IMG/VR virus record: IMGVR_UViG_3300017777_002509
Span: 1-28,383 of that record
Source: a virus
Taxonomy: Duplodnaviria > Caudoviricetes
DNA length: 28,383 nucleotides
Direction: 5' to 3' (one strand)
The position numbers were made by a program, and so were the translations under genes. Below, in pieces: positions 8,820-28,383 of this stretch. The first letter of the stretch is position 1; every line of letters starts with the position of its first letter. The notes under the pieces were generated by a model, which ran no database searches, had not been told where the DNA came from, and saw only the letters and a program-made list of their open reading frames with translations.

Positions 8820-10403
8820 TTAAAATTCCAATACGATTTTTACATCTTCTTTTTGACTAGAAGATCTGGGAATTGCTGATCTATTATCTATGTATATGAT
8901 TTCTCCAGACCTTTTATTGTATTCTGCTGATGCAATACCGGAATTAAAAGTAATTCCAAGTTGATATGTTCGATTATTTATGATTGTCGATATACCACTA
9001 AATCCAGAACTAATTGATAATGGTGTAGTTCCATTCATAGATGAACCAGTAATCAATAAACTACCACCAGACCCAGGAGATGAAGTAAATTTATTTATTT
9101 TATATCCAACACCAGTTGTTCCTAATCCAACTGGTTGGTAATATTTAAGAACTCCTGTAATGTTATCCCAAGATGCTACAAAACCAATTGCAGTAGATCC
9201 AGTGCTAATAGTTTGAGTAATCGTAGAATCTACAGCATAGGTTGTTGCGGTGGTTGCACTTCCGGTAAACTTAAGAGCACTAAGACCACTCACCAAAGAA
9301 GTATTTAAAATTTCGGTATTACTTCCTAATATTGTAGGATTTTTGATAATACCAACTCTTGCAAAATCATTACCAGAAATAATATCAGGATTTGATTCTA
9401 AAGTTTCATATCTAGAATATACAAGAACACGATATGCTCCTAGTTCTCTGTAAATATCATATCCATGCCCACCTTTTGGTGGTATGATTACATCAAATGT
9501 GGCAAGTGATGTGGCACCTATTCCTGTATTTAATAAAGATGTTGTAAGACCTGGAGCACCTGGAGAGAATTGGATAGTTGCATTTGTATATCCTTGCCCT
9601 CCATCAGTAACATAAACATCCATAACTTTTCCAAAAGAATCAGTAGTTACAGTTACTTTACCATCAGAACCATCTCCTAAAATTGGTATATTTGTAAATG
9701 TCGAAGATGCTGGTTCGTAATTATTTCCTCTTTGTTTAATGACAACTGAATGTATTTTTCCATCTATAGAATTTTCTTTAATTGATATACTCTCTCCAAC
9801 TATTCCCCAATTTTCTGGAACAGGTATAAATTCAATTGAATCAAACTTTACAATTTCCGATGGTTTAATTGTATAAAGATATTTCCAAATATATCCATCT
9901 CCACTTGTTCCTGCTGCTCTTTGTTCTAAATCAATAAAAGATGGTTCATCATATGAAGGTCTTCCGTTTGGATTTTCTGGATCTGTTCCATTTTGAATGC
10001 AAATATAAACTCTTAAATCTTCATTAACTACATAGTAATTTGCTTGATATAAACTTGATTGTTGTGTTACTGGTGTTTTGTTATAAATATTATAATCATT
10101 TCTATACATTTCATAAGTTGTTCCAGCAGTCCAAGTAACTTTTCGAATCATTCTACGAACATCATCCGTAGTAACTTGTTTCATTGCAATTATTGTATCT
10201 TTGATGTCATTTTCTTCCTTAAATCCGTCCAATGGAGATGGCCCAGTGTTCCAAGTAGATGATCCTCCGGCTAAAGGATTTGTAGAATTTGGTTGTCCAA
10301 TAAAAGTATAATAACGATTAAAAGTTTGTCCAATACCAATAAAACTTTTAACAAAGGTTTCGGCATTTAATATTCTAAATTGGTCAGATATAATAGCAGG
10401 CAT
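8820..10403 (-). CDS. gp8: baseplate wedge subunit (T4 gp8-like)
   Basis: 527 aa; MPAIISDQFRILNA start, W..GT.YEMYR, YYVVN...VYICIQN, DGYIWKYLYTI, and C-terminal SGEIIYIDNR...R...QKEDVKIVLEF. Confidence 0.88.
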   Translation of the reverse strand: MPAIISDQFRILNAETFVKSFIGIGQTFNRYYTFIGQPNSTNPLAGGSSTWNTGPSPLDGFKEENDIKDTIIAMKQVTTDDVRRMIRKVTWTAGTTYEMYRNDYNIYNKTPVTQQSSLYQANYYVVNEDLRVYICIQNGTDPENPNGRPSYDEPSFIDLEQRAAGTSGDGYIWKYLYTIKPSEIVKFDSIEFIPVPENWGIVGESISIKENSIDGKIHSVVIKQRGNNYEPASSTFTNIPILGDGSDGKVTVTTDSFGKVMDVYVTDGGQGYTNATIQFSPGAPGLTTSLLNTGIGATSLATFDVIIPPKGGHGYDIYRELGAYRVLVYSRYETLESNPDIISGNDFARVGIIKNPTILGSNTEILNTSLVSGLSALKFTGSATTATTYAVDSTITQTISTGSTAIGFVASWDNITGVLKYYQPVGLGTTGVGYKINKFTSSPGSGGSLLITGSSMNGTTPLSISSGFSGISTIINNRTYQLGITFNSGIASAEYNKRSGEIIYIDNRSAIPRSSSQKEDVKIVLEF

Positions 10404-10412
10404 TTTATTTGA

Positions 10413-10429
10413 TATTTATGTTTATTTAT
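10413..10429 (-). promoter_or_regulatory. tandem late promoter-like motifs ATAAATA (10423-10429, 10413-10419)
   Basis: Two minus-strand ATAAATA motifs at the gp7-gp8 junction. Confidence 0.55.
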
Positions 10430-13400
10430 TTACTTTTAAACAAACCTCTTGTTCTTGTAACTTCCGGAGCAGTCGAAAGTCCAATTAAACCATTATTAGT
10501 GTTTAATGTAAATTCTTTTGGAGAACCAAGTGATCTATTTTGATAATCATATATCTTACCCCAACTATAATTTCCATAATAACCATTTGTTGTTATTCCA
10601 GGATTTATCGTAAAATTAATTCCGGACCCTGTTGATGGATTGGGAAGAAATGTACAAGTAACAGTCACTATTCCTACTACAGACGAATTGATTGGTTTTT
10701 CTACTATATCGGCACGATATAATCCATCAATAAATGAAGTTGCAGTACCAACAACTTCCCAAGAAGTAGAATTCGTAGTTATTCCGGTTAAGGAATGTCC
10801 ACACTGAACATTACTATTATATATTATGAAATAATCTCCTGCCGAAATTCCACTTGAATTTATATTATAACTATTAAGAGCAGAATACCCTATTCCTAAT
10901 TGAGTATTATCATAAGATTCGGTTTTTAATTTAATTTTTATTTTTGGTATAGTTGAACCGATACTAATGCTGGTATCGATACCCACTATAATACCAAAAT
11001 CACCCTTTGCCTTGATTGATTCGATTTCTTCTATTTTTGTTTTTTCTGATTCAATTAATACTTTTGGTGGATTTGCTTGATTATATCCAAAACCGGGATT
11101 TGTAATTATGATAGAAGTTACAATTCCAGATGTTGCATCTGAAATTGCTGATGCAAAATTATAAACAGGAACAGAATAAATTGAAGTGGCCCCAGATCCA
11201 ACAGAAATATATCTATCTTCAACAATTGAATAATTAATATCTTTTAATACATTTGATTGATTTGTGGATCTCTGAGTCCAATTTTGAAGATTAAATGAAT
11301 AATATAATATTCCATTTGAATCTAATAATGTATATAAGTCGTAATATGAATTGTAATGTATATTTGTAAAATTACCAGAAATATTGGGAGTAATCTGCAC
11401 CCAACTAGTTCCATTGGTAGAAGTTCTAATTTCGGAATTGTTACCAACAGTTATAAATTGAGATCCAGTCCAAATAACTTTATTTAAATTTTCTCCTGTA
11501 ATATTATTAGAACTCCAAAATGTTCCTACATCACTTGTAATAACTGTTCCATTATTTCCAACTGCAACAATAATATTTCCTATAGAAATTGATTTTAAAT
11601 CATCAATTGTATTTGATGGTTTTTTGACAAATTCTGTACTACCAAATCCAACTGCAGAAAAAATTGCACCACCACAACCAACAGAAATCCATTTATCTGT
11701 AGATGATGAATATTTAATGTCGGTCAATGATGAAATATAATTACTTAATGATCTAGTTACAATACCAAATTGAGAAGTTTCTTCGTATTTATTGTATTCG
11801 GTCCAAGAAGATATCGTTACACCAAATCCAATAGATCTTACAATCTTACCTTTTTCTCCAACAGCAATATAATAATTTGTAGAACCCAATCCAACAGAAT
11901 TGAAGGAAATCGTTTTACCATACCCAATATTTGTTATTGTATTAAATGATATTCCATTTGTTGTAATTGCTACTATTCCACTTTGTCCAACAGACACTAT
12001 AGGATTTCCAATAGTAAATGATAATAATGAGGTATTTGTCGATAATCCACTCGTAGGCAACCAATTTAATATTGGATCTTTACTTTCGACTGATATTGTT
12101 GATATTAAAACTTTTGGAGAAATTGTCGATGCATATCCAATACCTCCAGTAGAAATTGCAATAGAAGATATTGTATTTGCAATTGATACAACTGCTGTTG
12201 CAATTCCTGCTTCTGTGTCTTTATTTTCAATTATTAATACATTTCTGTCTGCTTCTTCTATTAAATCAATATCAGTAAATAAAGGATATGCATTATTTAC
12301 ATATATTGACGTATCTGTAGCACTTAAGTTTTTAATAATTCTAGTTGTGGGTCTAATCGTTGATATTAAACTTGGTCTTGCTTTAGAAACTAAAGAACCA
12401 AGAATAACTCTATCTTCTGTTTGTTTTGTCCATTTTAATGGTCTAAATTTATCCGGATTTGTATTGATTCCAATACTATCATAATTATAAGTATCAAGTT
12501 GATCTGATGCAACAATTTTTTTAACTACTCTTTCAAACTGTTCTCTATCTAAATTATCGTAAATATTTTCTCCAATTTGAACAATATCCCCCTCTTTAAT
12601 TGTTTTTGGCGGAATAATTGTTTCAACATCTAAAGAAGAACCTCTGTAAAATATAACAGAACATTTTGAGTTTATTTTTGGTGGTTCATTAAAAAATATT
12701 CTAGAACCAGAAAATGTGTAAGATTCTCCTGGTACTTGAAGTACATCATTCAAGAATATAAAAATATTATTTTGTAATATAATATCAGACCCAAAATTCT
12801 TTTTTAAATCAACTATTTCAGTATTTCCACTACTAGTTTGTGTTAATGTAAATTTTTTGCGAGATCCATTAAAATATTGAGAAAAATCATCAAAATAAAT
12901 AAATTGTCCAGGATAAAAACCACTAAATTTATCTGTTAGAGTTTCTGTCACTGTAAGTTTAAACTCTTGAAATCCTGCACCAATCGTTGGATTTGTAGTT
13001 AATCCAACTACTTTAAGAATATCTCCAACTTTATACCCAACACCAGGATTGTCCAAATTAAAACCAATAACACTTGAACCAGATCCAACTTGAATTGATA
13101 CTTTTGCATCAGTTCCAACTCCAGATGAACCACTAGTATACGCAACACCAAGATTGCTGTATGCAAGAGGTAAGTCGATATTTACATATACTGGTGAAGA
13201 TGAGGTATATCCAATTCCGCCATTAATGATTGAAAGTGACGACAATGTACCACCAACACCAACATTAGCCGTTATAGACGCACCAGAACCAACATTAGAC
13301 GTAATACTGATGCTTGGAGGTGTTCTATAACCACTACCACCACCTTTTATGGTAATTGAGGTAATTGTCCCTGCAGATGAAACTGATGCTGTTGCTGCTG

Positions 13401-16400
13401 CTCCAATTAATGGTTGATATCCAAATCCAGTTGTAATTGCAACATTTACAATTTTTCCAGCATTTGGGATACCAGTTAAAAATTTAATAGTATTATTTCC
13501 GGGTGTATCAATTGAATAATCTACTTCTGGACCTTGGAAAATATTGTTTATAAGTATAATCGGATTATTGTTAATGTCTGTAGAACTATTTGTGTCTGTA
13601 TACAATCCAACAACACTATTTCCATTTGATTTTAAATTAAATTGTGTTGCTGCAATTCCAGTAAAATTAGTAGAAATATCATCTAAAATTAAATTTTTAT
13701 CATTTGGACTTGAAGAATCAAATGCCCTAGAGAATGCTCTACCAGAGAAGAAAGATGATACTTTAAATTGAGGGTCCGTTGATGCTATTGCTGGTCCATA
13801 TGGTGGAGTAGAAAAATATATTACATCATCTATGATATTAAAATCACCAGTATGAACAGTAACCGCAGAACCTATTGTGTGCCCAGCAGCAACTGTTCCC
13901 ATAAATGAACGAGTAACATCTATTTTATTTGTAGATCCAATACCAACAGAAATGATTTTTAAAAATTCATTATTAATTTTTAAAATGTCTGATCCTGATA
14001 CGGAATTAATACCAGAAGAAATGTATATTGCGGTTGACCCAATACCGATTGATGTAGAAAGACCTATTGTAATATTTTTTCGATGAACTGCACTTTGAAT
14101 TATATTATCTATAGAAATAATTACATTTTCATTTGGATTTTTAAAACTAAATGATTGAGTTCCAGAACCATATGAAACTAAATTAAAAGGAGTCGAAATT
14201 GTTGTAGATAATCCACAAAGTTGAAAATTATTTACGTCAATTTTACGAACAAAAACATTTGATGGTAGTTTTTTAGTTCCCAGTAATGTCGGAGAAAGGT
14301 AAACATTATCTGCAGGTGTAGATCCACCAATATAAGTTCCAGCAATTGATATCTGGTCAGTTGATGCATAACCAGAACCACCATTCACTACAGACACTAA
14401 ACTAATATCTAGATTTGCATTTCTGAATACATTAAAAATCGCACCTGTACCTATTCCACTAGAAGAAGAAGGCACATTATTGTAAGTCGCATTTGCAGAT
14501 CCGGATCTGGTAGATGATAGTTTAGATATTGTAAAATACAGATTATTGGTGGGTGTTGCCCCACCCATATATGTTCCAGCAATTGAAATTTGTTGCCCTA
14601 CAGAATATACACTTCCACCATCAATTAACTGTATTGATGTACTTAATGGTATTCCAGTACCACCACTATAAGTGATAAGAACTTGAAATAGTGCTCCTGT
14701 ACCAATTCCAGTATTTACTTGTCCGGGAATAGGATTACCAAATCCAAAATATTGAATAACAGGACCAGGGGGAGATATAGTAGTGCTAATTCCAGTAACA
14801 ATTCCAGTATATGGGACATAATTATTATATCCATTTTCATATATTGCACTTCCTATTCCTGCTCCCACATTTATTAGTATATCAAGAGTTCCCGTTGCAT
14901 ATGATGTGGTAGCAATGCCTATAGTTGTCCCAACTCCAGAATTGTAAATTATTTCTTGCCCAGATTGAAATCCATGATTTGGGATAATAAATTTATCATT
15001 TGATAAATCGACAATTGTACTAGCAGATCCAACAAATTCTCTATAAAATAATGAATTTTCCGAACTTTTAAGTTTAAATGAAGACAAACCAACGATTGTT
15101 CCTCCAATTGTGCTAGTAATTCCTGTAAATTGTGAACTAATATCATCAATTGATGAAACTTTATTGGTCTTATTTAATATAAAAGTCCTCAAAGCAGTTC
15201 CTTCTGGGAAATAAATCCTTTCTACGGATTCGTCATCTAACACATCTTCTTCATATACCATCGAAAAATTATGTTTTGTATATAAAGAATCAAAGCTATC
15301 CATATTTACAAGTAATGTTGTTTCCGATGATGCAACAGAAACTTTCATATTTGTAGATTTAGCAATTCCAAGATTAACTGGGCCACTGGTGGGTATTCCA
15401 ATTATATTTAAATCTGAAAATTCTTTAAATCCAGATGGGTGTATAATTGATTTTACAGATTCTTTCCAAGTTGAGTATGGTATTTCGCTTTTAATTGAAT
15501 ATGAGAATTTTTGATAATAATTATTATCTGATATTCTTTGCTGATAATCGTTCAAAAAACCAACTTTGTCTCCAAAATTATTAATTTTGTCTCTAGAAAC
15601 TCCTAAAGATGCAGAAAGATTAAATATAGATACAAATTTTACTACTCCATTTAATTTTGAATTTTCCCCATAAAGTTTATCACCAACATTTAACACTCCT
15701 TTAGCGTTTATTAATCTTAATTGATTTATGTCATTATCCCAACCATCTTCCATTACTTGTGCTGAAAAATTAGTAGATGATACTTTTTCTCCAGAAAAAT
15801 ATTGGGCATCATCAATTATATTCATTTTAAATTCAGCCATATCTTTTTTATTGACAACATAACCAAGAGTAAAATCTGAATTATATTCACCAAATGAATT
15901 TGTTTGCAAACCATTCATATTATAGTTTATAGTTCTATTTGTTGTGTTTATTCCTGTTACTGTAAAAAAGTTATACCCATAATCTTTTGAATTAAAATTA
16001 GCAGAAGATGCAGATCCTACAGTCAATCTACATTTTTCAATAAAAATATTATCACCTACTACAAATGGAAATTCTGTTATTGTTGACCCATATCCAATTG
16101 CGATTGGTTCAAATAAAATAGGATCATTTACTAATTCTATTGTTCCATTTCCTGTGATATGATTTGCATATATTTGATCAATTTCATATCCATTTGAATT
16201 ATTGTATGGAACAATTCTGAGCGGATCTTTCAAATTAAAAACATTTTTTACTATTTTTACATCAATTACAGACCCACCTTGAATTTTAGATGTCAATTCT
16301 AATTGATCATTTCCAATAACTTTTAATCTTGGTGATGTATTATAATTTTTTCCTCCTGTCAAAATACCAATAGATTCTACTCTAGATATTTCTTTAATAA

Positions 16401-19400
16401 TGCAAATAGCAGGAACACTCAATTGTGGCAGTATAGTAGGATCTGTTGGATAATCAAATCCATCTTTAATTCTATCAAATGATAATATTTTACCAATTTC
16501 GGATGAAACTGGATACAATATTGCATTTTTTCCAGAAGAAGATTTGATATAATCTACAGATGGAAGAATCGAATACGATTTTCCTTTTGAATTAATTCTA
16601 ATTTGTGATATTTGTCCAGTTGTGTTTTTTGAATTTGTATCATAAAAAACTGAAGAAATTCCTGATACCTGAGTGTATTCTGTATATTCTGGTTTTTTAT
16701 TTAAATTAAATTTAAAAGAATTGGTTCCAATACCAATAATAGATTGTTCATTTGATAAATTGCTTGGCAGAATGTCAATTCGATTAAAACCAAAAACTTC
16801 TTTATCCGTAGATAATTGATTTTTTTCTACATCATTGGATGACGTAATAAAATTATAGTAAAGATTTGCAGGAATTGATCTATCATTAGTTTGTAGTGTT
16901 ATATTTGTAGATGTTCTTTGAATTGCAAATTGATTTGTTTCTTTTTTATCAATTTCAAACTGTTTTTTGAAATCTTGATCTATATAAAATCTTAAATCAA
17001 TATCCAATAATGTTGGATCGGATATATCAAATACTATTATATTTCCTTTTGAAAATGATAGTGGTGGATTTATAAGAGCAATATTTTGAGTACCAATTCC
17101 AGCATTAGAAAATGATATCCCCAATCCAATAGTCACGTCATAAGAATATTTACAAAGTTGTATTTTATCTGGGTGTTCTTTTAACACATAATAAACTGAT
17201 TCATTTTCTAAACCACCAATAGCAGTAGTTCCAGAATAATAAACAATTTTATCTCCATTTTTTAATATATTAGAACCAATATCAATTGTTGATGTAGAAC
17301 CAATAGAAACTTTTGATGTAGAAAAACCTATAAGATCGGTTGTAATTTTTCTATTTTTTTCATCAAATCTAAAAGATACATTTTCTGTTCTTGATGGTAT
17401 AATTGTAAATTTAATTTTATCTCCATCAATTAAATTGTGAGGTTCTGAAGTAGTCACAATTCCAGAATAATTTTCAACTCTTGCAGTTACTGTTTGATAT
17501 GTAGTTCGAATTGAATGAGAATAACCAACATTTGAATTGTAAGTAAAATATAAAGAATTTAAAGTACTCCCAATTCCAACTGAGGTAGTAAAACCTAATG
17601 TAGATATTCCCAGATAATTATTTCCAAAATTTACAGCATATATTGTTTGATTCTGCGTTAAACTAAATGCAGAAGAAGGATTGTTGTCATACACACTCAA
17701 TCCTATACCAGCAGAATAATTATAAATCAATTGTTGTCCAGTATAAAATTTATGATTTGGAATATAAATCGATTTTGATGGAACAAATTTATTTACGGTA
17801 GTGCTTGTTCCAATACCAACAACCGAATAATTAGTTCCAGTAATTCCAAATCCAACACTATTTGTTGGATCAAAATATATCATTTCATTTTCTGGCAAAA
17901 ATGATGAAATTGGATTAATTTCAGTAAATTGAAACTTTTTGGGAAGTAATCTTACACTTTCAATTCCTGCAGTATGAATTCCACCAGAAGAAGATCTATT
18001 GACCAATAACTGTGATGTTTCTGGTATGATATTTGTAATGGTTAATATTTCTGTTCCAATTTGAATTGAATCGTTAACTTCAAAACCAAAAATATCTGTG
18101 ACATTTATATTTGTAGAAATTCCAGTAACACCAACGTTTTGTAAACTAGTCGTCAATCCAGTTACTTTTTGATTTACAATTATAGTTTTTGTGCCTTCAA
18201 GTTGATACAGGGATATTGTTGATATTCCTGAAATAATTATTTTATCATTAGATATCAAATTATGTACTGATGAAGTAATTCCTATAATATTATTACCTTT
18301 AGTCGTAAATATAACGTCATTGAAAGTAGATACCCCAACAATCATATTTGATATTGTTTTACCATTTACTCTACCAATTTCTGCACTTATTCCTGTTCCT
18401 TCTTTTGCTTTTTTAAAATTTATAATATCATTTACACGATAGTCTTCACCCAAAGAATCAATTACAATAGATGTAATTCCGGATTTTTTAATTTGCTTTA
18501 CTATAAAATCTTGTTTTAAATTTGAAATATTTTTATTTAAAGCATCATATCCAGAATTTTCAGAATCTAAAAAATAATTTCCGAAATTTCTTATTAAATT
18601 AAGATTTTTAAAATCTAATTTTTGAGAAAAATTTGGATTAAAATTTTCAATAACTGGCGTATCTTTAAAATATTTTCCAATTACATATGGATATTTTGGA
18701 ATTAGATTTCCTGTAACTAAATCATGAGTTGCAAAGTAAGCATATGTTCCATATGGATACTCCGGAGTTATACAAAATCTTCCATTATATTGATCCAAAT
18801 CTCCAGAATTATTAAACTTATAATCGTTTACAAAAAAACCAATCTCAAAAGAATTTGGTCTTAACGAAGAAGAAATAATTGGATCTTCTATATAACTAGA
18901 ATTAATTAATTTAATACTAGTATCAGTTAAACTTGCATATCCATATGGTCCATAAATCGGATTTCCATCATAAGACCATCCAATAATTGGGCTATGCGAA
19001 GTGTCAATTCCAACTTCAGTATTATTATCGTTAATATTATCACCGATATTTTTTCTTAATTTTTTTGGTAGATAAAAATTAATTACTTTCAACTGAAGAG
19101 ATTGATCAATGCTTGGATATGTTATTGTTTCATCATCCCCACCATAAGATGATATTATATCTTTATTTCTTTTAATTTGATTAATGTTCCACTCAAATAC
19201 ATTTGCAATAAATTGCAAATCTTTTCCTCTTCTAATTGCCTCTATTGTGGTATTTGATTTTTTATATCCAACTCCACCATCAATTATTACAAATGATGTA
19301 ATTTTTCCATTTGCAATAATAGGTTGGATATTGGCATATTTTCCATCTCCAGAAATTATTATTTCAGTTCCATCATCATATCCCTTTCCAGAAAAAATAA

Positions 19401-22400
19401 TTTGAATGTCAGTAATTGAACCATTTATAATAACAGGTTTCAATAAAGCAGAAGTGATCGGTATTAAATCCACATTGGGTCTTCTGTGGAAATTAATAAT
19501 ATCAGAAGAACCATAAGAACTACCACCATCTTCAATATAAACACTTTCGGCACTTCCAAGTACTATTGGAGTCAATACTGGCGATACAATTGATGTTGAA
19601 CCTATTCCAGGTATAGATTCAACTTGAATATTAATCGGAGGATATGCAAACGTATGTGTACCAACTCCTAAAGAATTAAATTTAATATATTTTTTATTAA
19701 TATAATTTAAATTGGTTGATGTAGTTCCAATACCTGCATCAGATAATTTAAATTTATCTTGATCGATAACTGTAATATAGTATTCAATATTGGTAGATAA
19801 TCCAGATATTGAAGTACCGGTGTTGGAATATTTAATAAAATCTCCATTTCTAAATCCATGATTTTTGGCAAAAATATAATCATCAAATGTGCTAATTCCA
19901 GAAATTTGATAATCTAAAGATGGGTATGAAATAGAAGATACTTTAACTAATCTATTTGAATATCCGGAACCTGAATTTTTGACATAAATTTTATTAATAG
20001 TTTTTTTACTGTTAAGAGTTCTAAATTCATGAAATCCGGAACTTATTCCGGTAATATTAATAGTATTAATTCCTGATAAAACATCTGATCTATTTTTGTG
20101 TAATTTAATTTGTTTTGAATTTATAATATTTACAAAATAATTTGATTTATCATTTAATCCAGGGAGAACCGAATTTCCATTTGAATAATATGTGACTTCT
20201 TCATAATTATCAAAATTATGATTATCTATAAATGATATGGTTTCTGTAGATGTATTAATTGCTGTTAAATCTGCTTTAAATTTTGCAATAATTCTTGTTT
20301 TTACTAAATTGGATTCTAATACTGCACCAGAACCATTTCCACCAATTAAAGTTATTTTTGGTTTTCTATCATAACCAATTCCTGGGGAATTTATTTTTAC
20401 TTCTTTTAATGATCCAGAAAGAATTAAATTTGCTTTACATCCAGATCCAATAGAATCACTAATAATTAAATCTGAAGAATTTATCACATCATAATCTTTT
20501 CCTGGATTTGTTATTTGAATTGAATCTATTTTTCCGTAATAAATATTTTCATCAAATAAAGTTGGTGAAAATAATTCCACACCATTAACTAACAATCCAA
20601 TATTTCTATTAAATGTAGTTCGATCATTTTCGTTATCAAAATAATTAATATTTTCAGTTAAATTGAATTTTCTTAATATTTTTTGATCTTTAATTGTTTT
20701 ATTTTCATAACCAAGTTTGAAAATAAAATCATTAGAAACTCCAGAATATAAATTAATATATTCTTCGGCAAATAAATTAGTATTACTATATGCCAGTGAT
20801 ATGGAATTATTATTAATTTTTTTTACAAAATAAATTCCAGTTTCAATTCCGGCAGAAGTTTTTGAATCATAATAAATTTTATCTCCAGATAATAAATTAT
20901 GATTAGATATTTCCAAAATTGTAGTTGATCCTGTTCCTGTAGTGATAACATTTCTTTTTGTATTTTTAGACGTAATTGTATAATTCGGAAAACCAGAAGT
21001 AGTCACGTATAAATATTTTCCCTCATTATCAATATAAGTATTTTGGACTCCTCCATTTATATTTGATATATCAGTAAAATTTGGAGAATTGGCTTTAGTA
21101 ATTTTTTTCTTAATTTTTATTATATTGTCTATATTTGGTAATGATTCTATAATAATCGTGGTTGATGATTCGATAGTTTTAACTATAGCATCAATATCTA
21201 CATTTAATACATCAGAAATATAAATTTGATCATTTTTATAAAGTTTAACGTTGTCTTTTAATATTATTCTATAATTGTTATTGCCAATTGATGTTATTCC
21301 ACTTATATTATGATATGTTGGTATATTATAAATCCAACTATCAAATTTTATATTTCCTGATAAGTTTTTTCCAAAAGAACTGAGTGATATTTTATCTCCA
21401 ATTTTTAATCCAGAAGAAGTTTTAGTATCAATTTTATCAATTACACTAATAACTCTAAATTCGTTTAATGATGTATCTGATTGATCATATGCATATGCTA
21501 ATTTTTTTTCATAAATAAAATCTCCAAAATTTAAATTTTGACTAATGCCAGAAACATTTAAAAATTGAGTGCTTGTTTTGTCTGTATAATTTAAAGTTAA
21601 TTCGGTTAAATTTGATTTTTGGGCAATAATTGTTCCTGATTGTGCAAATCCAACTGTAGAATCAACAGTAATTGTATTATTTGATGCAGGAACAGTTTCA
21701 ATTACTTTAGTAGATCCTGTAATTTCAAAATCACCAGTAAAAGAGGTAGAATCTAAAGATATTTCATAAAAATCTTTACCTTGTATTGGTCTATATTCAA
21801 TATTATAGATAGAGGCAGAAACTGTACCAATTCCACTTATAAATTGATTTAATGTTGTTCCTTTTAATGAAGTGATATTTTTTCCAGAAATTTTTTCAAC
21901 TAAAATGTTTTTTGTTACAAAATAATTATTATCAGATGGCCTCAACATATATTCTTGAGGATTTATTGTTTCTATTTCTGTTCCATATAAAATTGAAAAA
22001 AGAATTTTAAAAGACTGTGCTGTTCCTTTTGAAGAATAAAAATCTTTTGCTCTTGATAAAATATTTTGTAAAGAAATTTCTGGAGTAAATTTTCTTTCCT
22101 CAAAACCAGGCAAAAACTGATATTTAAATTTTTTAAATATTTCAAAAAAGAATATAAAATTTAAATTTTGCAAAGAACTTCCAGATGTATGCTCTGATGC
22201 TTCAGTAATTGAAAAATTTAAAAATTCTGGATTATTGTTTCTTTGTAAACTATCAATTCCACTAAATCCACGAATACAACCCAAAAATGAATTTGAAGTT
22301 TTTGAGGTATAAGTAATAATTTCATCATTAATTTTAATTAATCCATATTTACTTGGATATCCAATTGTATGTGATACTAAAATAGTATCATCAAAGGATA

Positions 22401-22638
22401 AAATATTAGAAGTTAATATAGATGGAAGATTTAAATCTATTAATGTTTCATTGTTAAAATTTTGTATTTTTTTATATTTTTGAATATTAGATGATAAATC
22501 AACTATTCCAGTTTGATGTTCCTGTGATGTATAATATTGATTTAAAAATTCTTGAAAAATTGGAGATTCTTCATTCAAAAATTCAGGAATTTGTGAATCT
22601 AAAATATGATTGATTTTTATTCTTTTGATTTCCGTCAT
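10426..22638 (-). CDS. gp7: giant baseplate wedge initiator (gp7-like) with YHYH-like domain, beta-propeller and repeated beta modules
   Basis: 4070 aa between gp6 and gp8; N-terminal QIPEF...F.EFL.QYY, KDFYSSKGT..SFKILF.ILYG; internal DNNYYQKFSYSIKS...W...VK.IIHPSGFKEF; C-terminal G.YSWGKI. Confidence 0.78.
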   Translation of the reverse strand: MTEIKRIKINHILDSQIPEFLNEESPIFQEFLNQYYTSQEHQTGIVDLSSNIQKYKKIQNFNNETLIDLNLPSILTSNILSFDDTILVSHTIGYPSKYGLIKINDEIITYTSKTSNSFLGCIRGFSGIDSLQRNNNPEFLNFSITEASEHTSGSSLQNLNFIFFFEIFKKFKYQFLPGFEERKFTPEISLQNILSRAKDFYSSKGTAQSFKILFSILYGTEIETINPQEYMLRPSDNNYFVTKNILVEKISGKNITSLKGTTLNQFISGIGTVSASIYNIEYRPIQGKDFYEISLDSTSFTGDFEITGSTKVIETVPASNNTITVDSTVGFAQSGTIIAQKSNLTELTLNYTDKTSTQFLNVSGISQNLNFGDFIYEKKLAYAYDQSDTSLNEFRVISVIDKIDTKTSSGLKIGDKISLSSFGKNLSGNIKFDSWIYNIPTYHNISGITSIGNNNYRIILKDNVKLYKNDQIYISDVLNVDIDAIVKTIESSTTIIIESLPNIDNIIKIKKKITKANSPNFTDISNINGGVQNTYIDNEGKYLYVTTSGFPNYTITSKNTKRNVITTGTGSTTILEISNHNLLSGDKIYYDSKTSAGIETGIYFVKKINNNSISLAYSNTNLFAEEYINLYSGVSNDFIFKLGYENKTIKDQKILRKFNLTENINYFDNENDRTTFNRNIGLLVNGVELFSPTLFDENIYYGKIDSIQITNPGKDYDVINSSDLIISDSIGSGCKANLILSGSLKEVKINSPGIGYDRKPKITLIGGNGSGAVLESNLVKTRIIAKFKADLTAINTSTETISFIDNHNFDNYEEVTYYSNGNSVLPGLNDKSNYFVNIINSKQIKLHKNRSDVLSGINTINITGISSGFHEFRTLNSKKTINKIYVKNSGSGYSNRLVKVSSISYPSLDYQISGISTFDDYIFAKNHGFRNGDFIKYSNTGTSISGLSTNIEYYITVIDQDKFKLSDAGIGTTSTNLNYINKKYIKFNSLGVGTHTFAYPPINIQVESIPGIGSTSIVSPVLTPIVLGSAESVYIEDGGSSYGSSDIINFHRRPNVDLIPITSALLKPVIINGSITDIQIIFSGKGYDDGTEIIISGDGKYANIQPIIANGKITSFVIIDGGVGYKKSNTTIEAIRRGKDLQFIANVFEWNINQIKRNKDIISSYGGDDETITYPSIDQSLQLKVINFYLPKKLRKNIGDNINDNNTEVGIDTSHSPIIGWSYDGNPIYGPYGYASLTDTSIKLINSSYIEDPIISSSLRPNSFEIGFFVNDYKFNNSGDLDQYNGRFCITPEYPYGTYAYFATHDLVTGNLIPKYPYVIGKYFKDTPVIENFNPNFSQKLDFKNLNLIRNFGNYFLDSENSGYDALNKNISNLKQDFIVKQIKKSGITSIVIDSLGEDYRVNDIINFKKAKEGTGISAEIGRVNGKTISNMIVGVSTFNDVIFTTKGNNIIGITSSVHNLISNDKIIISGISTISLYQLEGTKTIIVNQKVTGLTTSLQNVGVTGISTNINVTDIFGFEVNDSIQIGTEILTITNIIPETSQLLVNRSSSGGIHTAGIESVRLLPKKFQFTEINPISSFLPENEMIYFDPTNSVGFGITGTNYSVVGIGTSTTVNKFVPSKSIYIPNHKFYTGQQLIYNYSAGIGLSVYDNNPSSAFSLTQNQTIYAVNFGNNYLGISTLGFTTSVGIGSTLNSLYFTYNSNVGYSHSIRTTYQTVTARVENYSGIVTTSEPHNLIDGDKIKFTIIPSRTENVSFRFDEKNRKITTDLIGFSTSKVSIGSTSTIDIGSNILKNGDKIVYYSGTTAIGGLENESVYYVLKEHPDKIQLCKYSYDVTIGLGISFSNAGIGTQNIALINPPLSFSKGNIIVFDISDPTLLDIDLRFYIDQDFKKQFEIDKKETNQFAIQRTSTNITLQTNDRSIPANLYYNFITSSNDVEKNQLSTDKEVFGFNRIDILPSNLSNEQSIIGIGTNSFKFNLNKKPEYTEYTQVSGISSVFYDTNSKNTTGQISQIRINSKGKSYSILPSVDYIKSSSGKNAILYPVSSEIGKILSFDRIKDGFDYPTDPTILPQLSVPAICIIKEISRVESIGILTGGKNYNTSPRLKVIGNDQLELTSKIQGGSVIDVKIVKNVFNLKDPLRIVPYNNSNGYEIDQIYANHITGNGTIELVNDPILFEPIAIGYGSTITEFPFVVGDNIFIEKCRLTVGSASSANFNSKDYGYNFFTVTGINTTNRTINYNMNGLQTNSFGEYNSDFTLGYVVNKKDMAEFKMNIIDDAQYFSGEKVSSTNFSAQVMEDGWDNDINQLRLINAKGVLNVGDKLYGENSKLNGVVKFVSIFNLSASLGVSRDKINNFGDKVGFLNDYQQRISDNNYYQKFSYSIKSEIPYSTWKESVKSIIHPSGFKEFSDLNIIGIPTSGPVNLGIAKSTNMKVSVASSETTLLVNMDSFDSLYTKHNFSMVYEEDVLDDESVERIYFPEGTALRTFILNKTNKVSSIDDISSQFTGITSTIGGTIVGLSSFKLKSSENSLFYREFVGSASTIVDLSNDKFIIPNHGFQSGQEIIYNSGVGTTIGIATTSYATGTLDILINVGAGIGSAIYENGYNNYVPYTGIVTGISTTISPPGPVIQYFGFGNPIPGQVNTGIGTGALFQVLITYSGGTGIPLSTSIQLIDGGSVYSVGQQISIAGTYMGGATPTNNLYFTISKLSSTRSGSANATYNNVPSSSSGIGTGAIFNVFRNANLDISLVSVVNGGSGYASTDQISIAGTYIGGSTPADNVYLSPTLLGTKKLPSNVFVRKIDVNNFQLCGLSTTISTPFNLVSYGSGTQSFSFKNPNENVIISIDNIIQSAVHRKNITIGLSTSIGIGSTAIYISSGINSVSGSDILKINNEFLKIISVGIGSTNKIDVTRSFMGTVAAGHTIGSAVTVHTGDFNIIDDVIYFSTPPYGPAIASTDPQFKVSSFFSGRAFSRAFDSSSPNDKNLILDDISTNFTGIAATQFNLKSNGNSVVGLYTDTNSSTDINNNPIILINNIFQGPEVDYSIDTPGNNTIKFLTGIPNAGKIVNVAITTGFGYQPLIGAAATASVSSAGTITSITIKGGGSGYRTPPSISITSNVGSGASITANVGVGGTLSSLSIINGGIGYTSSSPVYVNIDLPLAYSNLGVAYTSGSSGVGTDAKVSIQVGSGSSVIGFNLDNPGVGYKVGDILKVVGLTTNPTIGAGFQEFKLTVTETLTDKFSGFYPGQFIYFDDFSQYFNGSRKKFTLTQTSSGNTEIVDLKKNFGSDIILQNNIFIFLNDVLQVPGESYTFSGSRIFFNEPPKINSKCSVIFYRGSSLDVETIIPPKTIKEGDIVQIGENIYDNLDREQFERVVKKIVASDQLDTYNYDSIGINTNPDKFRPLKWTKQTEDRVILGSLVSKARPSLISTIRPTTRIIKNLSATDTSIYVNNAYPLFTDIDLIEEADRNVLIIENKDTEAGIATAVVSIANTISSIAISTGGIGYASTISPKVLISTISVESKDPILNWLPTSGLSTNTSLLSFTIGNPIVSVGQSGIVAITTNGISFNTITNIGYGKTISFNSVGLGSTNYYIAVGEKGKIVRSIGFGVTISSWTEYNKYEETSQFGIVTRSLSNYISSLTDIKYSSSTDKWISVGCGGAIFSAVGFGSTEFVKKPSNTIDDLKSISIGNIIVAVGNNGTVITSDVGTFWSSNNITGENLNKVIWTGSQFITVGNNSEIRTSTNGTSWVQITPNISGNFTNIHYNSYYDLYTLLDSNGILYYSFNLQNWTQRSTNQSNVLKDINYSIVEDRYISVGSGATSIYSVPVYNFASAISDATSGIVTSIIITNPGFGYNQANPPKVLIESEKTKIEEIESIKAKGDFGIIVGIDTSISIGSTIPKIKIKLKTESYDNTQLGIGYSALNSYNINSSGISAGDYFIIYNSNVQCGHSLTGITTNSTSWEVVGTATSFIDGLYRADIVEKPINSSVVGIVTVTCTFLPNPSTGSGINFTINPGITTNGYYGNYSWGKIYDYQNRSLGSPKEFTLNTNNGLIGLSTAPEVTRTRGLFKSK

Positions 22639-22639
22639 T

Positions 22640-24508
22640 TTATCTTGTGTAGTATCCGTTTAAGTAACTCGATGTTGAGGTATAAGAAGTAGCAGAAATA
22701 TTTTCTCCTGAAGTAATTGTATCCTCTATAGTATTTACTATAGTATTATTGATATCTATTTGTAAATAAATATCTTTCAATGCAATTACATCATTTGATT
22801 CTGGTATTGCTTGTATTTCAATTTTATTATTTGGCAATGATGTCGATACAATATTTACTATATTTAATTTAATTTCTCCTTTTAAATAATCAACTGTTCC
22901 TGCATCTGAAGATATTATTGTTGGAACATTATCTATAAGTTTAAAAAATAATATTTTTCCATTCATAGAATCAATTGGATCATCAGTTAAATATAAGGTG
23001 TCTGCAACATCTTTAATTTTAAATCCTGAAGATTTGATGTTATATTTTCCTGTTTTTTGGTGAAATTTATTCCCAAAACACACCTCATACGTAGCAAATT
23101 TATTCATTTCTACTGAAAGATCTCTTCTCATTCTAACTTTAGTAATATTTGAAGTAATTCCTCGATTTGTATTATCGATTAAAGTATTTACTCTACTAAA
23201 TTTAAATCTTCCCCCAAAACTATTTACATCAGAAGATATAGAATAGGAATTTAAAGTATTTAAAACTTGATTTTTAATTATAACTGGATCTGAAATAAAT
23301 GCTGGATTATAATAAACAGTAGAATCAATTTCAACATATAGATATTTTAAATCAATAAGTTCTGGTTTAATTCCAGCAATTGAATACTGTTTTAATTTTT
23401 TCCTAATATCATTTTTTGTAATTTCTGATAAAAAATTACCATTTCTTGGTTTAATTGAAATAAAAACCTTTCCATATTGTGGGGGATCCAATTCTTCTCC
23501 CCCATATGCAGTTACAGAATCTATATTCGAATAAAGATAAGGTATTAAACCTTTATAGTCATTTGCGGTTACGGCTCTATATTGAGAGGCATACACTCTT
23601 GGGGCAAGATACTTTACAGAATCTATCGTTTCGATGTCATCTCCATTTTCCGATGAAGACGTTGTTGTAATTAAAGAAATTCCACTTGTAATATTAGTTG
23701 AGTTATTATCTTTAATATTTCCAGAAAAAGTAAAGTTTGCAGATCCATCTGCAGATTTTCCATTAGTTACAATATAAGAAATGGAAATTGTGCTACCATG
23801 TTCTGGTTTTTTTCCTAAAATATTATCACCAAATAAAATTTCATATTTTTCATCTTCTATTTCTTGAATTAAAAATAATTTTGATGTTTTATTTACATTT
23901 AAAATATTTTCATATAATGTATATACTTCAATTGTGCTATTAGACACACTTACACGAATCGTTGAAGTATCTACATTTGAATTTGGTATTAAAAATCTTT
24001 GATTTGGTTGGCTGTAATCGACTGTAAATGTTTTTGTTAAGTAGGACCCTTCGTAAATATCTAAATTTTCAAAAAATGCAATATTTGAAGTATTTACAGG
24101 AACTGTTACATCAGATGGTATTGAGAATATATAATTACCATCTTGAACTGCGCCCAATGCAAATGGTCCTGCTTTTAATGTTACAGTTCTAGAATTATAA
24201 GATGAGGTATCTACAGAAAAACTTATTTTTGCTTTAGATGATTTTTTTGAACGAGGCACATATCCAATATTACGAGCATGAGAAACTACATTTTCTCTTA
24301 ATGTTGCACTATCTAAAAATGCTTCATTTGCTTGCATATTAGTATTATATGCAGTAATATAGGAATTGTATGCAAGAATATCAATCAGAACGGAAAAATT
24401 TGATCCTTCAAAATCAAAATCAGTAAAATTAGAATTTGATCTCAGATAGTCTTTAATCTGAGTACGTAAATCATTAAAATCTAAATTAGTAAATTGATTG
24501 AATGACAT
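22640..24508 (-). CDS. gp6: baseplate wedge subunit (T4 gp6-like)
   Basis: 622 aa; LDFNDLR..IKDYLR...FTDFDFEGSNFSVLIDILAYN, AFLDSATLRENVVSHARNIGYVPRS, QYRAVTANDY, YGKVFISIKP. Confidence 0.92.
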   Translation of the reverse strand: MSFNQFTNLDFNDLRTQIKDYLRSNSNFTDFDFEGSNFSVLIDILAYNSYITAYNTNMQANEAFLDSATLRENVVSHARNIGYVPRSKKSSKAKISFSVDTSSYNSRTVTLKAGPFALGAVQDGNYIFSIPSDVTVPVNTSNIAFFENLDIYEGSYLTKTFTVDYSQPNQRFLIPNSNVDTSTIRVSVSNSTIEVYTLYENILNVNKTSKLFLIQEIEDEKYEILFGDNILGKKPEHGSTISISYIVTNGKSADGSANFTFSGNIKDNNSTNITSGISLITTTSSSENGDDIETIDSVKYLAPRVYASQYRAVTANDYKGLIPYLYSNIDSVTAYGGEELDPPQYGKVFISIKPRNGNFLSEITKNDIRKKLKQYSIAGIKPELIDLKYLYVEIDSTVYYNPAFISDPVIIKNQVLNTLNSYSISSDVNSFGGRFKFSRVNTLIDNTNRGITSNITKVRMRRDLSVEMNKFATYEVCFGNKFHQKTGKYNIKSSGFKIKDVADTLYLTDDPIDSMNGKILFFKLIDNVPTIISSDAGTVDYLKGEIKLNIVNIVSTSLPNNKIEIQAIPESNDVIALKDIYLQIDINNTIVNTIEDTITSGENISATSYTSTSSYLNGYYTR

Positions 24509-24909
24509 TATACCCTAGTTGGTTGTAAGATAAACTCTATATTTTGAGTTGGAAATGGTAGTCCAACAATATCATAAGTAATTTTAATGTTTAAATCATT
24601 TGTATCATCTGGATTTTCAATTTCAACACTGCGTAATAATATTCTTAATTCGAAATTATTCAATAAGGTTGTGATTTCTTCTTCTAAAAAAGAGAATACA
24701 TCAGAATTTCCTATTTCAAATAATGTATCATCAACTGATGTTCCTATTAGATTATTAAAAAACCTTTCATTTAAACGAGTCCTAACAAGATTAATAACAG
24801 ATTTTTTAATTGCATCTTCATTTTTAAGTATTGTTATATCATTAGTAACTGGATGTTTCGCAAAAGATAAACTGATATCTTTAAAACTACGAGAAATTGT
24901 TACTGCCAT
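24508..24909 (-). CDS. gp25: baseplate wedge subunit / sheath initiator (gp25-like)
   Basis: 133 aa; FKDISLSF..HPVT.DI..LKNEDAIKKSV.NLV.T...ERFF...IG; TAATG coupled to gp6. Confidence 0.9.
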   Translation of the reverse strand: MAVTISRSFKDISLSFAKHPVTNDITILKNEDAIKKSVINLVRTRLNERFFNNLIGTSVDDTLFEIGNSDVFSFLEEEITTLLNNFELRILLRSVEIENPDDTNDLNIKITYDIVGLPFPTQNIEFILQPTRV

Positions 24910-25190: not shown

Positions 25191-25253
25191 CTCCTGTTTT
25201 AAAAATAAAACAGAACTTTTATGATGGAGGTTTCTATCTCCAAATATATTTAA
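25191..25253 (-). promoter_or_regulatory. late-promoter-like TAAATA followed by a two-hairpin leader that covers the RBS
   Basis: TAAATA 25247-25252; stem UGGAG/CUCCA 25225-25242; stem UUCUGUUUUA/UAAAACAGGA 25192-25215 including AGGA of the SD. Confidence 0.45.
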
Positions 25254-25591
25254 CGATTTAGATTTCTGATTTTATAATTGTATGAATTAAAATATTTTAA
25301 AAGTTCAATTGCAACAATTTTTGGATTTCCTTCTCCACAAGTATAAATGTCAATTGCAATGCATCCTTTTTCTGGCCATGTATGCGCCGAAAAATGACTT
25401 TCTGATAGTGCAATTACGATAGTAAGACCTTGTGGTTCAAATTTATGAGTAAAGATATTTAAAATAGTCATCTTTGCACGAGAAATCCCCCTTTGGATTA
25501 CTTCCAATAGAGGGATTGTATCATTTAACAAATTATATTCAATATCATATACCTCTAATAAGAGGTGATTGCCCATAGAAAATTGTTCCAA
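25250..25591 (-). CDS. speD: S-adenosylmethionine decarboxylase proenzyme (pyruvoyl-dependent, SpeD class 1b)
   Basis: G.HLL.E, HKFEPQG.T....LSESH.S.HTWPE.G..AIDIYTCG; the E|SH autocleavage site and Cys are present. The true start is probably the ATG at 25576 (MGNHLL). Confidence 0.92.
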   Translation of the reverse strand: MEQFSMGNHLLLEVYDIEYNLLNDTIPLLEVIQRGISRAKMTILNIFTHKFEPQGLTIVIALSESHFSAHTWPEKGCIAIDIYTCGEGNPKIVAIELLKYFNSYNYKIRNLNR

Positions 25592-26589: not shown

Positions 26590-27342
26590 TCAGATAACTC
26601 TCATCTTTTCATGTCCGACACGAATCTGTGGATCACACCAAATTTCAAATCCTTCTTCTTTTGCATCAAGACAGAAAGAAACATCTTCTCCGCACATATC
26701 TTGCACTTCGCCAGATTCAAAGACTTGCATCTTAGGAGCAAACCAAGGATATTCAAGTTTTTCAAATACTCCTTTTTTAATCAGTACCCAACCAAATCCT
26801 GTATAATCAACTGTAAATGGCTTGCGCCTCTTGCTCATTGTATCTCCAGTTTCATGATTCATGACTCCTCCATTGCCCCTAAAATCGTCCTCCTCTAACC
26901 AATGAGCAACTGAGGTAGTATGACCATCTTCAGTCATATACCACCCTGCTGCAATGTCTTTATCCATTGCTACAAGACGATAAAACTTTTCTGTATCAAA
27001 TACGATATCACTATCAATCCAAAGTTGATAATCATAATTCAATTTTCCATCCCATGGAACTTGTTTTGGTCCCCTGAGAACATTTGCACCTAAACATTTG
27101 CAACGTGCAAAGTTTACCATGGAAGAATAATCCTGTGATATTTGAATGCTTGCACCATTCTGCACAAGATCAAAACATAACTGAACAAAATTCTTTAAAT
27201 ATGTATATGATACTCCACGACCTGGAAGACAAAATACAACCGATTTTCCTTTAATTAATTCTTTAGCTGCCTGTAAATTAAAATCATCTGTTGATGATGT
27301 ACTTAATGGTGCCTTTGCTTTAACTGTAAATCCTTTTGCCAT
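26590..27342 (-). CDS. GT-A fold (GT2-like) glycosyltransferase
   Basis: 250 aa; VNFARCKC, YDYQLWIDSDIVF (DxD), GFGWVLIKKGVFE...PWF, GEDVSFC, IWCDP..RVGHEK. Confidence 0.75.
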   Translation of the reverse strand: MAKGFTVKAKAPLSTSSTDDFNLQAAKELIKGKSVVFCLPGRGVSYTYLKNFVQLCFDLVQNGASIQISQDYSSMVNFARCKCLGANVLRGPKQVPWDGKLNYDYQLWIDSDIVFDTEKFYRLVAMDKDIAAGWYMTEDGHTTSVAHWLEEDDFRGNGGVMNHETGDTMSKRRKPFTVDYTGFGWVLIKKGVFEKLEYPWFAPKMQVFESGEVQDMCGEDVSFCLDAKEEGFEIWCDPQIRVGHEKMRVI

Positions 27343-27692: not shown

Positions 27693-28085
27693 TTTTTTTT
27701 GTTTTGGGTCTTCAAAAATTATATAGGCATTGTGATACTTTGATTTGTGCGATATTATGAGAGAAACCTTTTTTTGTGTATTTTTTCCCTCCGAAATTTT
27801 TTATAAAAGAGGGGAAACACTTATGCAATTTGAAACGGACTCGTAATCACTCTCTCGTTTTTGGTCCGTTGTAGGTTAGGGTAGTTATGCGTTTTTACTT
27901 TAGGCATCGGTTTATAATAACAAACAAACAACGTTGAATATAACTGTCCAAACAGTGCTGTATAATAATATACACGAACTACAAAATATTGGTTATTATT
28001 CTAAATTGATTGATATTAATATAAACTATACCCAGGGTATGTAAAATAACTGTACCGGGGGTATCATAATTAGAAGAACTGAGAG

Positions 28086-28357
28086 TTTTCCACAGGACGA
28101 TAAAGGTTTTCCACAGGTAAACGAAGAGTTTTCCACAGGTATTCCACAATCTTATGAGGTTTTCCACAGGTTTGTGTAGTTTTCCACAGGTAAACGAAGA
28201 GTTTTCCACAGGTTTATGAGAGTTTTCCACAGGGCAATTCTTATAAACCCTTGCAAACACTACAACTACTTCTAAATCTGTGGAAAACTATTACAACGAA
28301 CAGTTCTTATACTCTATACTACCACGAACAACCTGTGGAAAACTACTTTTCCACAGG
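28086..28357. repeat. cluster of DnaA-box-like TTTTCCACA(GG) repeats; candidate origin or DnaA-binding locus
   Basis: Exact forward boxes start at 28086, 28107, 28129, 28160, 28180, 28202, 28223, 28347; reverse boxes at 28279, 28334; 1-mismatch TATTCCACA at 28140. Confidence 0.85.
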
Positions 28358-28383
28358 ACGAAGTAGTATCATACTCACAGATA

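Follow-up and report, generated by a model that had tools for sequence, protein, structure and literature searches.

An array of cyanobacterial DnaA-type boxes at a conserved position in T4-like cyanophage genomes

Introduction

Initiation in T4 is the textbook example of independence from DnaA, and the locus described here raises the question of what a dense array of host-type DnaA boxes does in the genome of a T4-like cyanophage. The array lies at one end of a viral contig of 28,383 nt (28 kb), assigned to the Kyanoviridae, which was analysed in its entirety and is referred to as the window in the following. A first-pass annotation of this DNA had described the array as a mimic of the host chromosomal origin (oriC), which would either recruit host DnaA for early origin firing or titrate it in the manner of datA. 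The identity of the boxes and their syntenic conservation were borne out by our analysis, whereas a strict oriC mimic was not.

In the literature searched, with subscription journals and supplements outside the search, we found neither a report of DnaA boxes in cyanophages nor a mapped replication origin in any T4-like cyanophage, and the term 'DnaA' does not occur in the available text of a review of T4 replication (PMC3016281). Host DnaA boxes acting as helpers on extrachromosomal DNA are already known; for T4-like cyanophages they are unreported in the literature searched.

A dense box array in a T4-like cyanophage

Judged from its sequence, the phage is T4-like: it carries baseplate-wedge genes and, near the array, a gene for a 250-aa protein with 80–86% identity to its counterparts in cultured Kyanoviridae. 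Most of the public sequencing runs that contain the window stretch are metagenomes from freshwater, lakes or sediment. The window also holds an S-adenosylmethionine decarboxylase-like gene (25250–25591) and encodes a 4070-aa baseplate wedge protein (10426–22638). Exact copies of TTTTCCACA occur ten times at 28086–28355, eight on the + and two on the − strand; as first annotated, they and one TATTCCACA box lie within about 270 bp; none occurs elsewhere in the window. The features relevant to the argument are the following:

8820–24909, − strand: baseplate-wedge genes (gp25, gp6, gp7-like and the next wedge subunit), which mark a T4-like cyanophage
26590–27342, − strand: glycosyltransferase-like gene for the 250-aa protein, conserved in cyanomyophages (T4-GC 102), used as synteny anchor
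27760–27900: non-coding element that many Kyanoviridae conserve upstream of the anchor gene, whether or not they carry boxes
27979–28260, − strand: ORF over the repeats, GTG start, 93 aa, judged spurious
28086, 28107, 28129, 28160, 28180, 28202, 28223 and 28347, + strand: exact TTTTCCACA
28279 and 28334, − strand: exact TTTTCCACA
28140: TATTCCACA, an eleventh, variant box beside the ten exact ones
28086–28231, + strand: forward run of seven exact TTTTCCACA plus TATTCCACA, differing in length among close relatives
28232–28278: constant-length spacer (47 nt) separating the last box of the forward run from the first reverse box
28279–28287, − strand: reverse box facing the forward run
28334–28355: back-to-back pair (reverse box at 28334, forward box at 28347, 4 nt between them)
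28356–28383, + strand: start of the linker to a cassette outside the window, without DnaA-trios

The consensus TTWTNCACA matches ten times in the window, always inside the array and not once in 1–28085. Markov models predict about 3–6 matches for that stretch, which is a weak hint of avoidance outside the array. While the window-wide number of boxes is unremarkable (mean 6.2 in shuffled sequences; ten reached in 5 of 100 shuffles), their clustering is unusual: by chance, about 0.01 boxes or fewer would be expected per 300 bp, and the maximum of perfect boxes per 300 nt was two in 300 Markov-1 resamples versus ten observed. With ten exact boxes in 270 bp, the array belongs among the cyanobacterial DnaA-box clusters, defined as at least four close consensus boxes in non-coding DNA.

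Within the forward run, start-to-start distances are 21, 22, 11, 20, 20, 22 and 21. The boxes at 28129 and 28140 form a 'double box' with 2 bp between them, the sole such pair in the window. Positions 28106–28140 are identical to 28179–28213 (35 nt), so that some box copies are recent and tandem duplication accounts for part of their number. In the 47-nt spacer, 28 of 47 columns are invariant across six relatives; a motif of this spacer reappears just before the −35 box in the near relative L072, and its recurrence suggests a second binding protein. Back-to-back pairs in relatives keep a 13-nt spacing in six of ten cases. The possibility of a protein-coding repeat was rejected, as the sole ORF over the array is made up of the repeats themselves and matches no PHROGs family. 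Rfam gave nothing near the gathering score for the array region and no match for the element at 27760–27900.

The first-pass annotation had also considered that the array might continue beyond the window, or that the contig might be a chimera with host dnaN/oriC. The same layout, with 11 perfect boxes, is found in L072 (89.6% identity in the anchor gene), which shares the last box of the window; beyond the point that corresponds to the window end it has no further boxes, and a promoter, an AT-rich, G-poor block and phage-type ORFs follow. The array thus ends inside the window, and its right flank is phage DNA. A chimeric assembly is further opposed by the presence of the array in four runs from four studies. 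In one of these (X1, possibly the source sample), a 1106-nt contig equals 28184–28383 with zero differences, and an X1 contig of the same length and depth as well as one X3 contig continue into the promoter, where the spacer differs from that of L072 and the hexamers are identical; no single contig covers the whole stretch. Two RNA runs yielded no contig on the L072 stretch, which is evidence neither way, and in six RNA runs just 0.07–0.11 of the words were present. The array is real and conserved.

The boxes match those of cyanobacterial hosts

The identification of the 9-mer as a cyanobacterial DnaA box agrees with published work: in the available text of the respective papers, TTTTCCACA is the typical DnaA box of the cyanobacterial phylum (PMC4009838), and pairs of it are shifted by domain IV of Cyanothece DnaA in electrophoretic mobility shift assays (PMC4674748). 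The resemblance extends beyond the 9-mer itself. A G precedes 0.66 of 82 phage boxes and 0.65 of 107 cyanobacterial boxes, and a G follows 0.78 and 0.72 of them, respectively. Same-strand spacings of 20–22 account for 10 of 31 cases in phages and 43 of 67 in cyanobacteria, with a mode of 21 in both, and spacings of 11–12 come second in both (6 of 31 and 13 of 67). The cyanobacterial side of this comparison comprises 28 loci, selected by record title from the first 80 matches listed. Both the host-like flanks and the helical phasing are present in the array. A test of the inner-hexamer boundary, largely circular at positions 1, 2 and 9, was used for the outer boundary only.

As probable hosts we took the family of genome G112, which the gene order around dnaN suggests to be picocyanobacterial. 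DnaA was found in 80 of its 81 genomes, and all 30 DnaA proteins examined (L420–L449) carry the motif DH(T/S)T in the recognition helix, in 14 of them as DHST in place of DHTT. The DHST proteins come mostly from high-G+C genomes whose origins use TTTTCCCCA, a link that is confounded with G+C across the 19 hosts compared. On the phage side, the Pfam profile Bac_DnaA_C scored above its cut-off in none of five Kyanoviridae genomes and in 10 of 14 controls, a tblastn search of two genomes found no phage-encoded DnaA, and there were no Kyanoviridae among the listed DnaA matches in the phage collection (40 of 60 and 60 of 91). Because box, flanks and phasing match those of the hosts, and because DnaA was found in the hosts and in none of the phage genomes searched, host DnaA very probably binds the array.

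The array is not a copy of a host origin

Perfect boxes are scarce in the origins of the probable hosts. Among 49 host origins scored (one short locus was dropped), their number ranges from zero to three, 33 origins have none, and TTTTCCCCA is as common as TTTTCCACA. Anywhere in the genome, a close same-strand perfect pair is found in only 14 of the 81 host-family genomes. Consequently, the array is stronger than a probable host origin rather than a copy of one. Phages of TTTTCCCCA-using hosts do not appear to carry TTTTCCCCA arrays in its place, with three copies upstream of the anchor versus nine downstream.

In a true oriC mimic, melting of the phage DNA and loading of a helicase would both be the work of host DnaA. 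The host-like 21- and 11-bp phasing, intervals of about 55 bp, and boxes that abut the AT-rich block described below in S-PM2, S-CAM3 and S-CREM1 are in line with this reading. DnaA of Synechococcus elongatus requires DnaA-trios to unwind DNA, according to the available part of PMC8287927, and in host origins CTA-type trios follow the terminal box. This box-plus-trio element, scored within 16 bp 3′ of a box by a pattern of our own modelled on host sequences and with equal thresholds for both sets, occurs in 38 of the 49 host origins versus 4 of 35 phage clusters. It is absent from the window, where no trios follow the last box. Moreover, neither dnaN nor dnaA is adjacent, the geometry between boxes and AT-rich block varies, and many relatives have no boxes at all, which makes a strict oriC mimic very improbable. 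A check of GC skew and coding-strand switch, proposed along with the mimic, also came out negative: in four whole cultured genomes, with fourfold-degenerate sites examined in two, the skew shows neither an inversion nor a consistent extremum at the cassette.

In larger cyanobacteria, we observed a second, non-oriC array of 3–4 boxes with a period of about 21 bp beside a gene read as guaA (loci L226, L228, L229, L241, L245, L268, L276 and L282); from its sequence, it is a candidate datA/DBC-like site.

Conservation and spread among Kyanoviridae

To follow the array through relatives, the best 80 IMG/VR loci were chosen by the neighbouring protein and not by the motif. They contain 71 boxes in 280,566 nt upstream of the anchor versus four in 602,863 nt downstream (25.2 vs 0.7 per 100 kb), and the boxes are thus kept at the same place. 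The reversed 9-mer, as a control, occurs once upstream and twice downstream, and none of 27 single-base variants tested is clearly enriched upstream. At least two upstream boxes were found in 15 of the 80 loci, many contigs being too short to judge.

Sixteen cultured genomes were scanned whole for clusters, defined as at least two perfect boxes within 35 nt. Such a cluster is present, in one region apiece, in 12 of them, namely DSL-LC03, DSL-LC02, P-SSM7, S-PM2, S-ShM2, ACG-2014d, S-RIM12, S-SM2, S-CAM3, P-TIM68, S-CREM1 and Syn9; this is no measure of prevalence, because most of the 16 were chosen by their similarity to the module (Syn9 was chosen from a paper). S-PRM1 has a single box at the cassette, and S-SRM01, P-SSM2 and S-SCSM2R have none. 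Across relatives, the number of boxes ranges from 0 to 11, and the side on which they lie varies too.

Could the boxes be iterons for a phage protein, as in T4 oriE, or a near-neutral tandem repeat that merely resembles a DnaA box? T4 oriE has 12-nt iterons (PMC3016281, available text), TATAAG, ATAACGAA and further short repeats abound in the region, and some box copies are exact recent duplicates. Between the window and L072, 0 of 10 differences fall in the 45 box bases of 182 compared, which is too few to prove selection. Yet marine and freshwater genera with unrelated spacers have in common the 9-mer, flanks and phasing of host boxes; of the first 80 viral loci listed as having three boxes in close succession, 38 match Kyanoviridae proteins; and five genomes revealed no DnaA-type DNA-binding domain, although a phage protein of another fold could serve. 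On balance, we consider an iteron or neutral repeat improbable.

A different possibility is a sink of the datA or DnaA-box-cluster (DBC) type, which would titrate DnaA away from a weak host origin, stop host initiation and thereby spare nucleotides for the phage. The excess of ten perfect boxes over the zero to three of host origins, the rarity of close perfect pairs in host-family genomes, the growth of the forward run by tandem duplication and the lack of an unwinding element would all suit such a sink. Multicopy datA disturbs replication (PMC2533591, available text). Furthermore, S. elongatus cannot do without DnaA, and a V-shaped skew is found in most cyanobacteria of clades C–G, as stated in the accessible part of PMC7198777, which makes a DnaA-directed effect on the host plausible. 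Against this stand the 2–5 boxes in each of the 11 cultured carriers other than DSL-LC03, the single phage copy at entry, and the association with one promoter and AT-rich cassette, for which a sink has no need. T4-like cyanophages also degrade host DNA anyway. A DnaA sink therefore seems rather unlikely to be the main role of the array.

Box arrays were also seen in other phages. Microvirus mar31 (MZ089777.1, L450:3001–3126), a 5.2-kb gut microvirus, has eleven head-to-tail TTTTCCACA with an 11-bp period and one further TTTTCCACA in the same non-coding gap; these may form a DnaA sink or a primosome site in an ssDNA phage. A capybara microvirus matches the array weakly. Three unrelated phages, represented by IMG/VR contigs of about 42 kb and about 55% G+C (L042, L054 and L080), have 4–6 TTTTCCACA boxes immediately ahead of a pair of large ORFs, which we read as probable terminase and portal genes.

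A promoter and AT-rich cassette beside the boxes

About 105 nt beyond the window end lies a TTGACA-17-TATAAT promoter on the + strand, directed against the genes. In L072, it is placed as follows:

3351–3379 of L072, window + strand: promoter, 132 nt after the last box and followed by an AT-rich block

In a profile built from 21 array-bearing loci, this sigma-70 promoter is joined by about 35 nt of conserved leader and by a T-rich block. The profile matches 44 loci, invariably on the strand that opposes the genes, and each of four whole genomes exactly once. Of the 80 protein-selected loci, 25 contain a match; 11 of these have at least two boxes nearby and 14 have none; cassettes without boxes are also found in S-SRM01, S-SCSM2R and S-SSM7. 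The profile found nothing within 14.8 kb of P-SSM2, nor in the S-ShM2 and S-RIM12 loci of 3 kb, both of which carry boxes. The boxes precede the promoter in the window lineage, follow the AT-rich block in S-PM2, S-CAM3 and Syn9, and lie on both sides of the promoter in DSL-LC03 and S-CREM1. Over 6 kb of L072, stability is lowest in a 100-nt stretch that begins 88 nt past the −10 box; elsewhere, the instability of the block is modest, ranking in the top 6% of windows in DSL-LC03 and in the top 23% in P-SSM7. The module is located at 19231–19307 in S-PM2 and at 52553–52684 in Syn9, where the cassette is accompanied by two perfect boxes. In S-PM2 (L451:1464–1620), the GenBank annotations of tRNA-Leu and tRNA-Asn overlap the AT-rich block and the boxes, and may be misplaced.

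Early small ORFs lie on one side of the module and the baseplate genes on the other, its promoter always opposes the gene stream, and 111 of 173 clustered boxes share one orientation. All this would fit a role in transcription control without any origin, in which DnaA represses or activates the backward promoter, or acts as a roadblock that, together with antisense transcription, shields the late baseplate genes against early read-through. DnaA can terminate transcription depending on orientation. In B. subtilis, clusters of at least four boxes regulate genes, possibly as roadblocks, according to the available text of PMC2533591. The back-to-back pair 28334/28347 scores as a terminator-like hairpin on the − strand, which also folds better than its shuffles (z −3.55), as the inverted boxes explain, and the absence of a skew signal is compatible with this reading as well. 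However, insulation does not call for a conserved untranslated AT-rich block, the boxes may stand on either side of the promoter or flank it, several genes separate the module from the baseplate operon, and no consensus RNA structure emerged from the first 70 nt of 21 transcript starts. Transcription control as the sole function is, in our judgement, doubtful.

Discussion

The explanation we favour, tentatively, is that the array serves as an accessory host-DnaA site for an adjacent R-loop origin of the T4 oriF type, used in early replication. Host RNA polymerase would fire the backward sigma-70 promoter just after entry, and the untranslated transcript would form an R-loop in the AT-rich block and prime the phage replisome. 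DnaA bound 130–260 bp upstream might boost or time this firing through promoter activation or DNA wrapping, much as at lambda pR, while DNA melting would not be the work of DnaA itself. Tandem expansion to 10–11 boxes would strengthen its binding.

Three lines of published evidence, each from the available text of its source, lead us to this preference. At T4 oriF and oriG, a promoter is followed by an AT-rich unwinding element, where the transcript primes replication from an R-loop (PMC3016281); cyanomyoviruses lack MotA and have early promoters of the sigma-70 type (PMC2984593); and in lambda, host DnaA acts at origin-proximal promoters (PMC3985674). For Syn9, a single origin has been predicted (PMC2984593).

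Several observations count against a helper site at an R-loop origin. The skew signal is absent and the instability of the AT-rich block in P-SSM7 is modest. The boxes are missing at many cassettes and hence dispensable. E. coli DnaA favours box pairs 2–3 bp apart (PMC11317965, available text), and the window has only one such pair. Finally, host origins are degenerate and frequently use TTTTCCCCA, and the DHST variants of DnaA are common, which counts against a firm prediction of affinity in the real host. Assistance at an R-loop origin, transcription control and titration are not mutually exclusive.

A more general proposal would be that replication of the Kyanoviridae starts at a single hybrid origin, in which add-on boxes let host DnaA license or time a sigma-70 R-loop cassette; this is possible, though we lean towards doubting it. 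If it holds, a lytic T4-like phage would tie the start of its replication to the host initiator and couple initiation to the light and cell-cycle state of the host, and box-rich lineages would also out-compete the host's weak oriC. Whichever way DnaA might act at the array, be it as helper, roadblock or sink, a very abundant family of aquatic phages would here be taking over its hosts by means of DNA sites instead of proteins, and the timing of infection could be linked to the host cell cycle. In practical terms, the module offers one precise, single-copy origin candidate, and because it is present in the laboratory models S-PM2 and Syn9, origin mapping becomes a direct experiment.

Comparison with known systems

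With cyanobacterial oriC, the array shares the exact 9-mer, the G flanks, the 21- and 11–12-bp phasing, the mixed orientations and the non-coding location. It differs in having neither the dnaN neighbour nor the trios, in boxes that converge in the phage and diverge in hosts, in its ten perfect boxes compared to the 0–3 of picocyanobacterial origins, and in being optional among relatives.

datA, a chromosomal site, requires IHF. Like datA and the clusters of B. subtilis, the array appears from its sequence to be a dense cluster of the high-affinity type without an unwinding element (PMC2533591, available text). Those are chromosomal regulators, whereas the array is virus-borne and tied to a promoter cassette.

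The iteron replicons P1, F and RK2 carry accessory host DnaA boxes, and thus likewise employ them as helpers on an extrachromosomal replicon; they differ in their Rep protein and matching iterons, neither of which was identified in the cyanophage.

T4 oriF (uvsY) and oriG have the same order of a promoter and an untranslated AT-rich block (PMC3016281, available text), and the cyanophage cassette reproduces it, with modest instability in P-SSM7. The T4 promoters are MotA-dependent middle promoters, while the cyanophage cassette has the sigma-70-type TTGACA-17-TATAAT, occurs in single copy, is accompanied by DnaA boxes and is a predicted origin.

Lastly, the lambda ori/pR/pO region also combines host DnaA sites with an origin-proximal promoter, where DnaA is a helper and not the initiator, and lambda is a temperate phage with its own O/P initiator and few, weak sites (PMC3985674, available text). 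The cyanophage array, by contrast, belongs to a lytic T4-like phage and comprises up to 11 perfect, phased sites.
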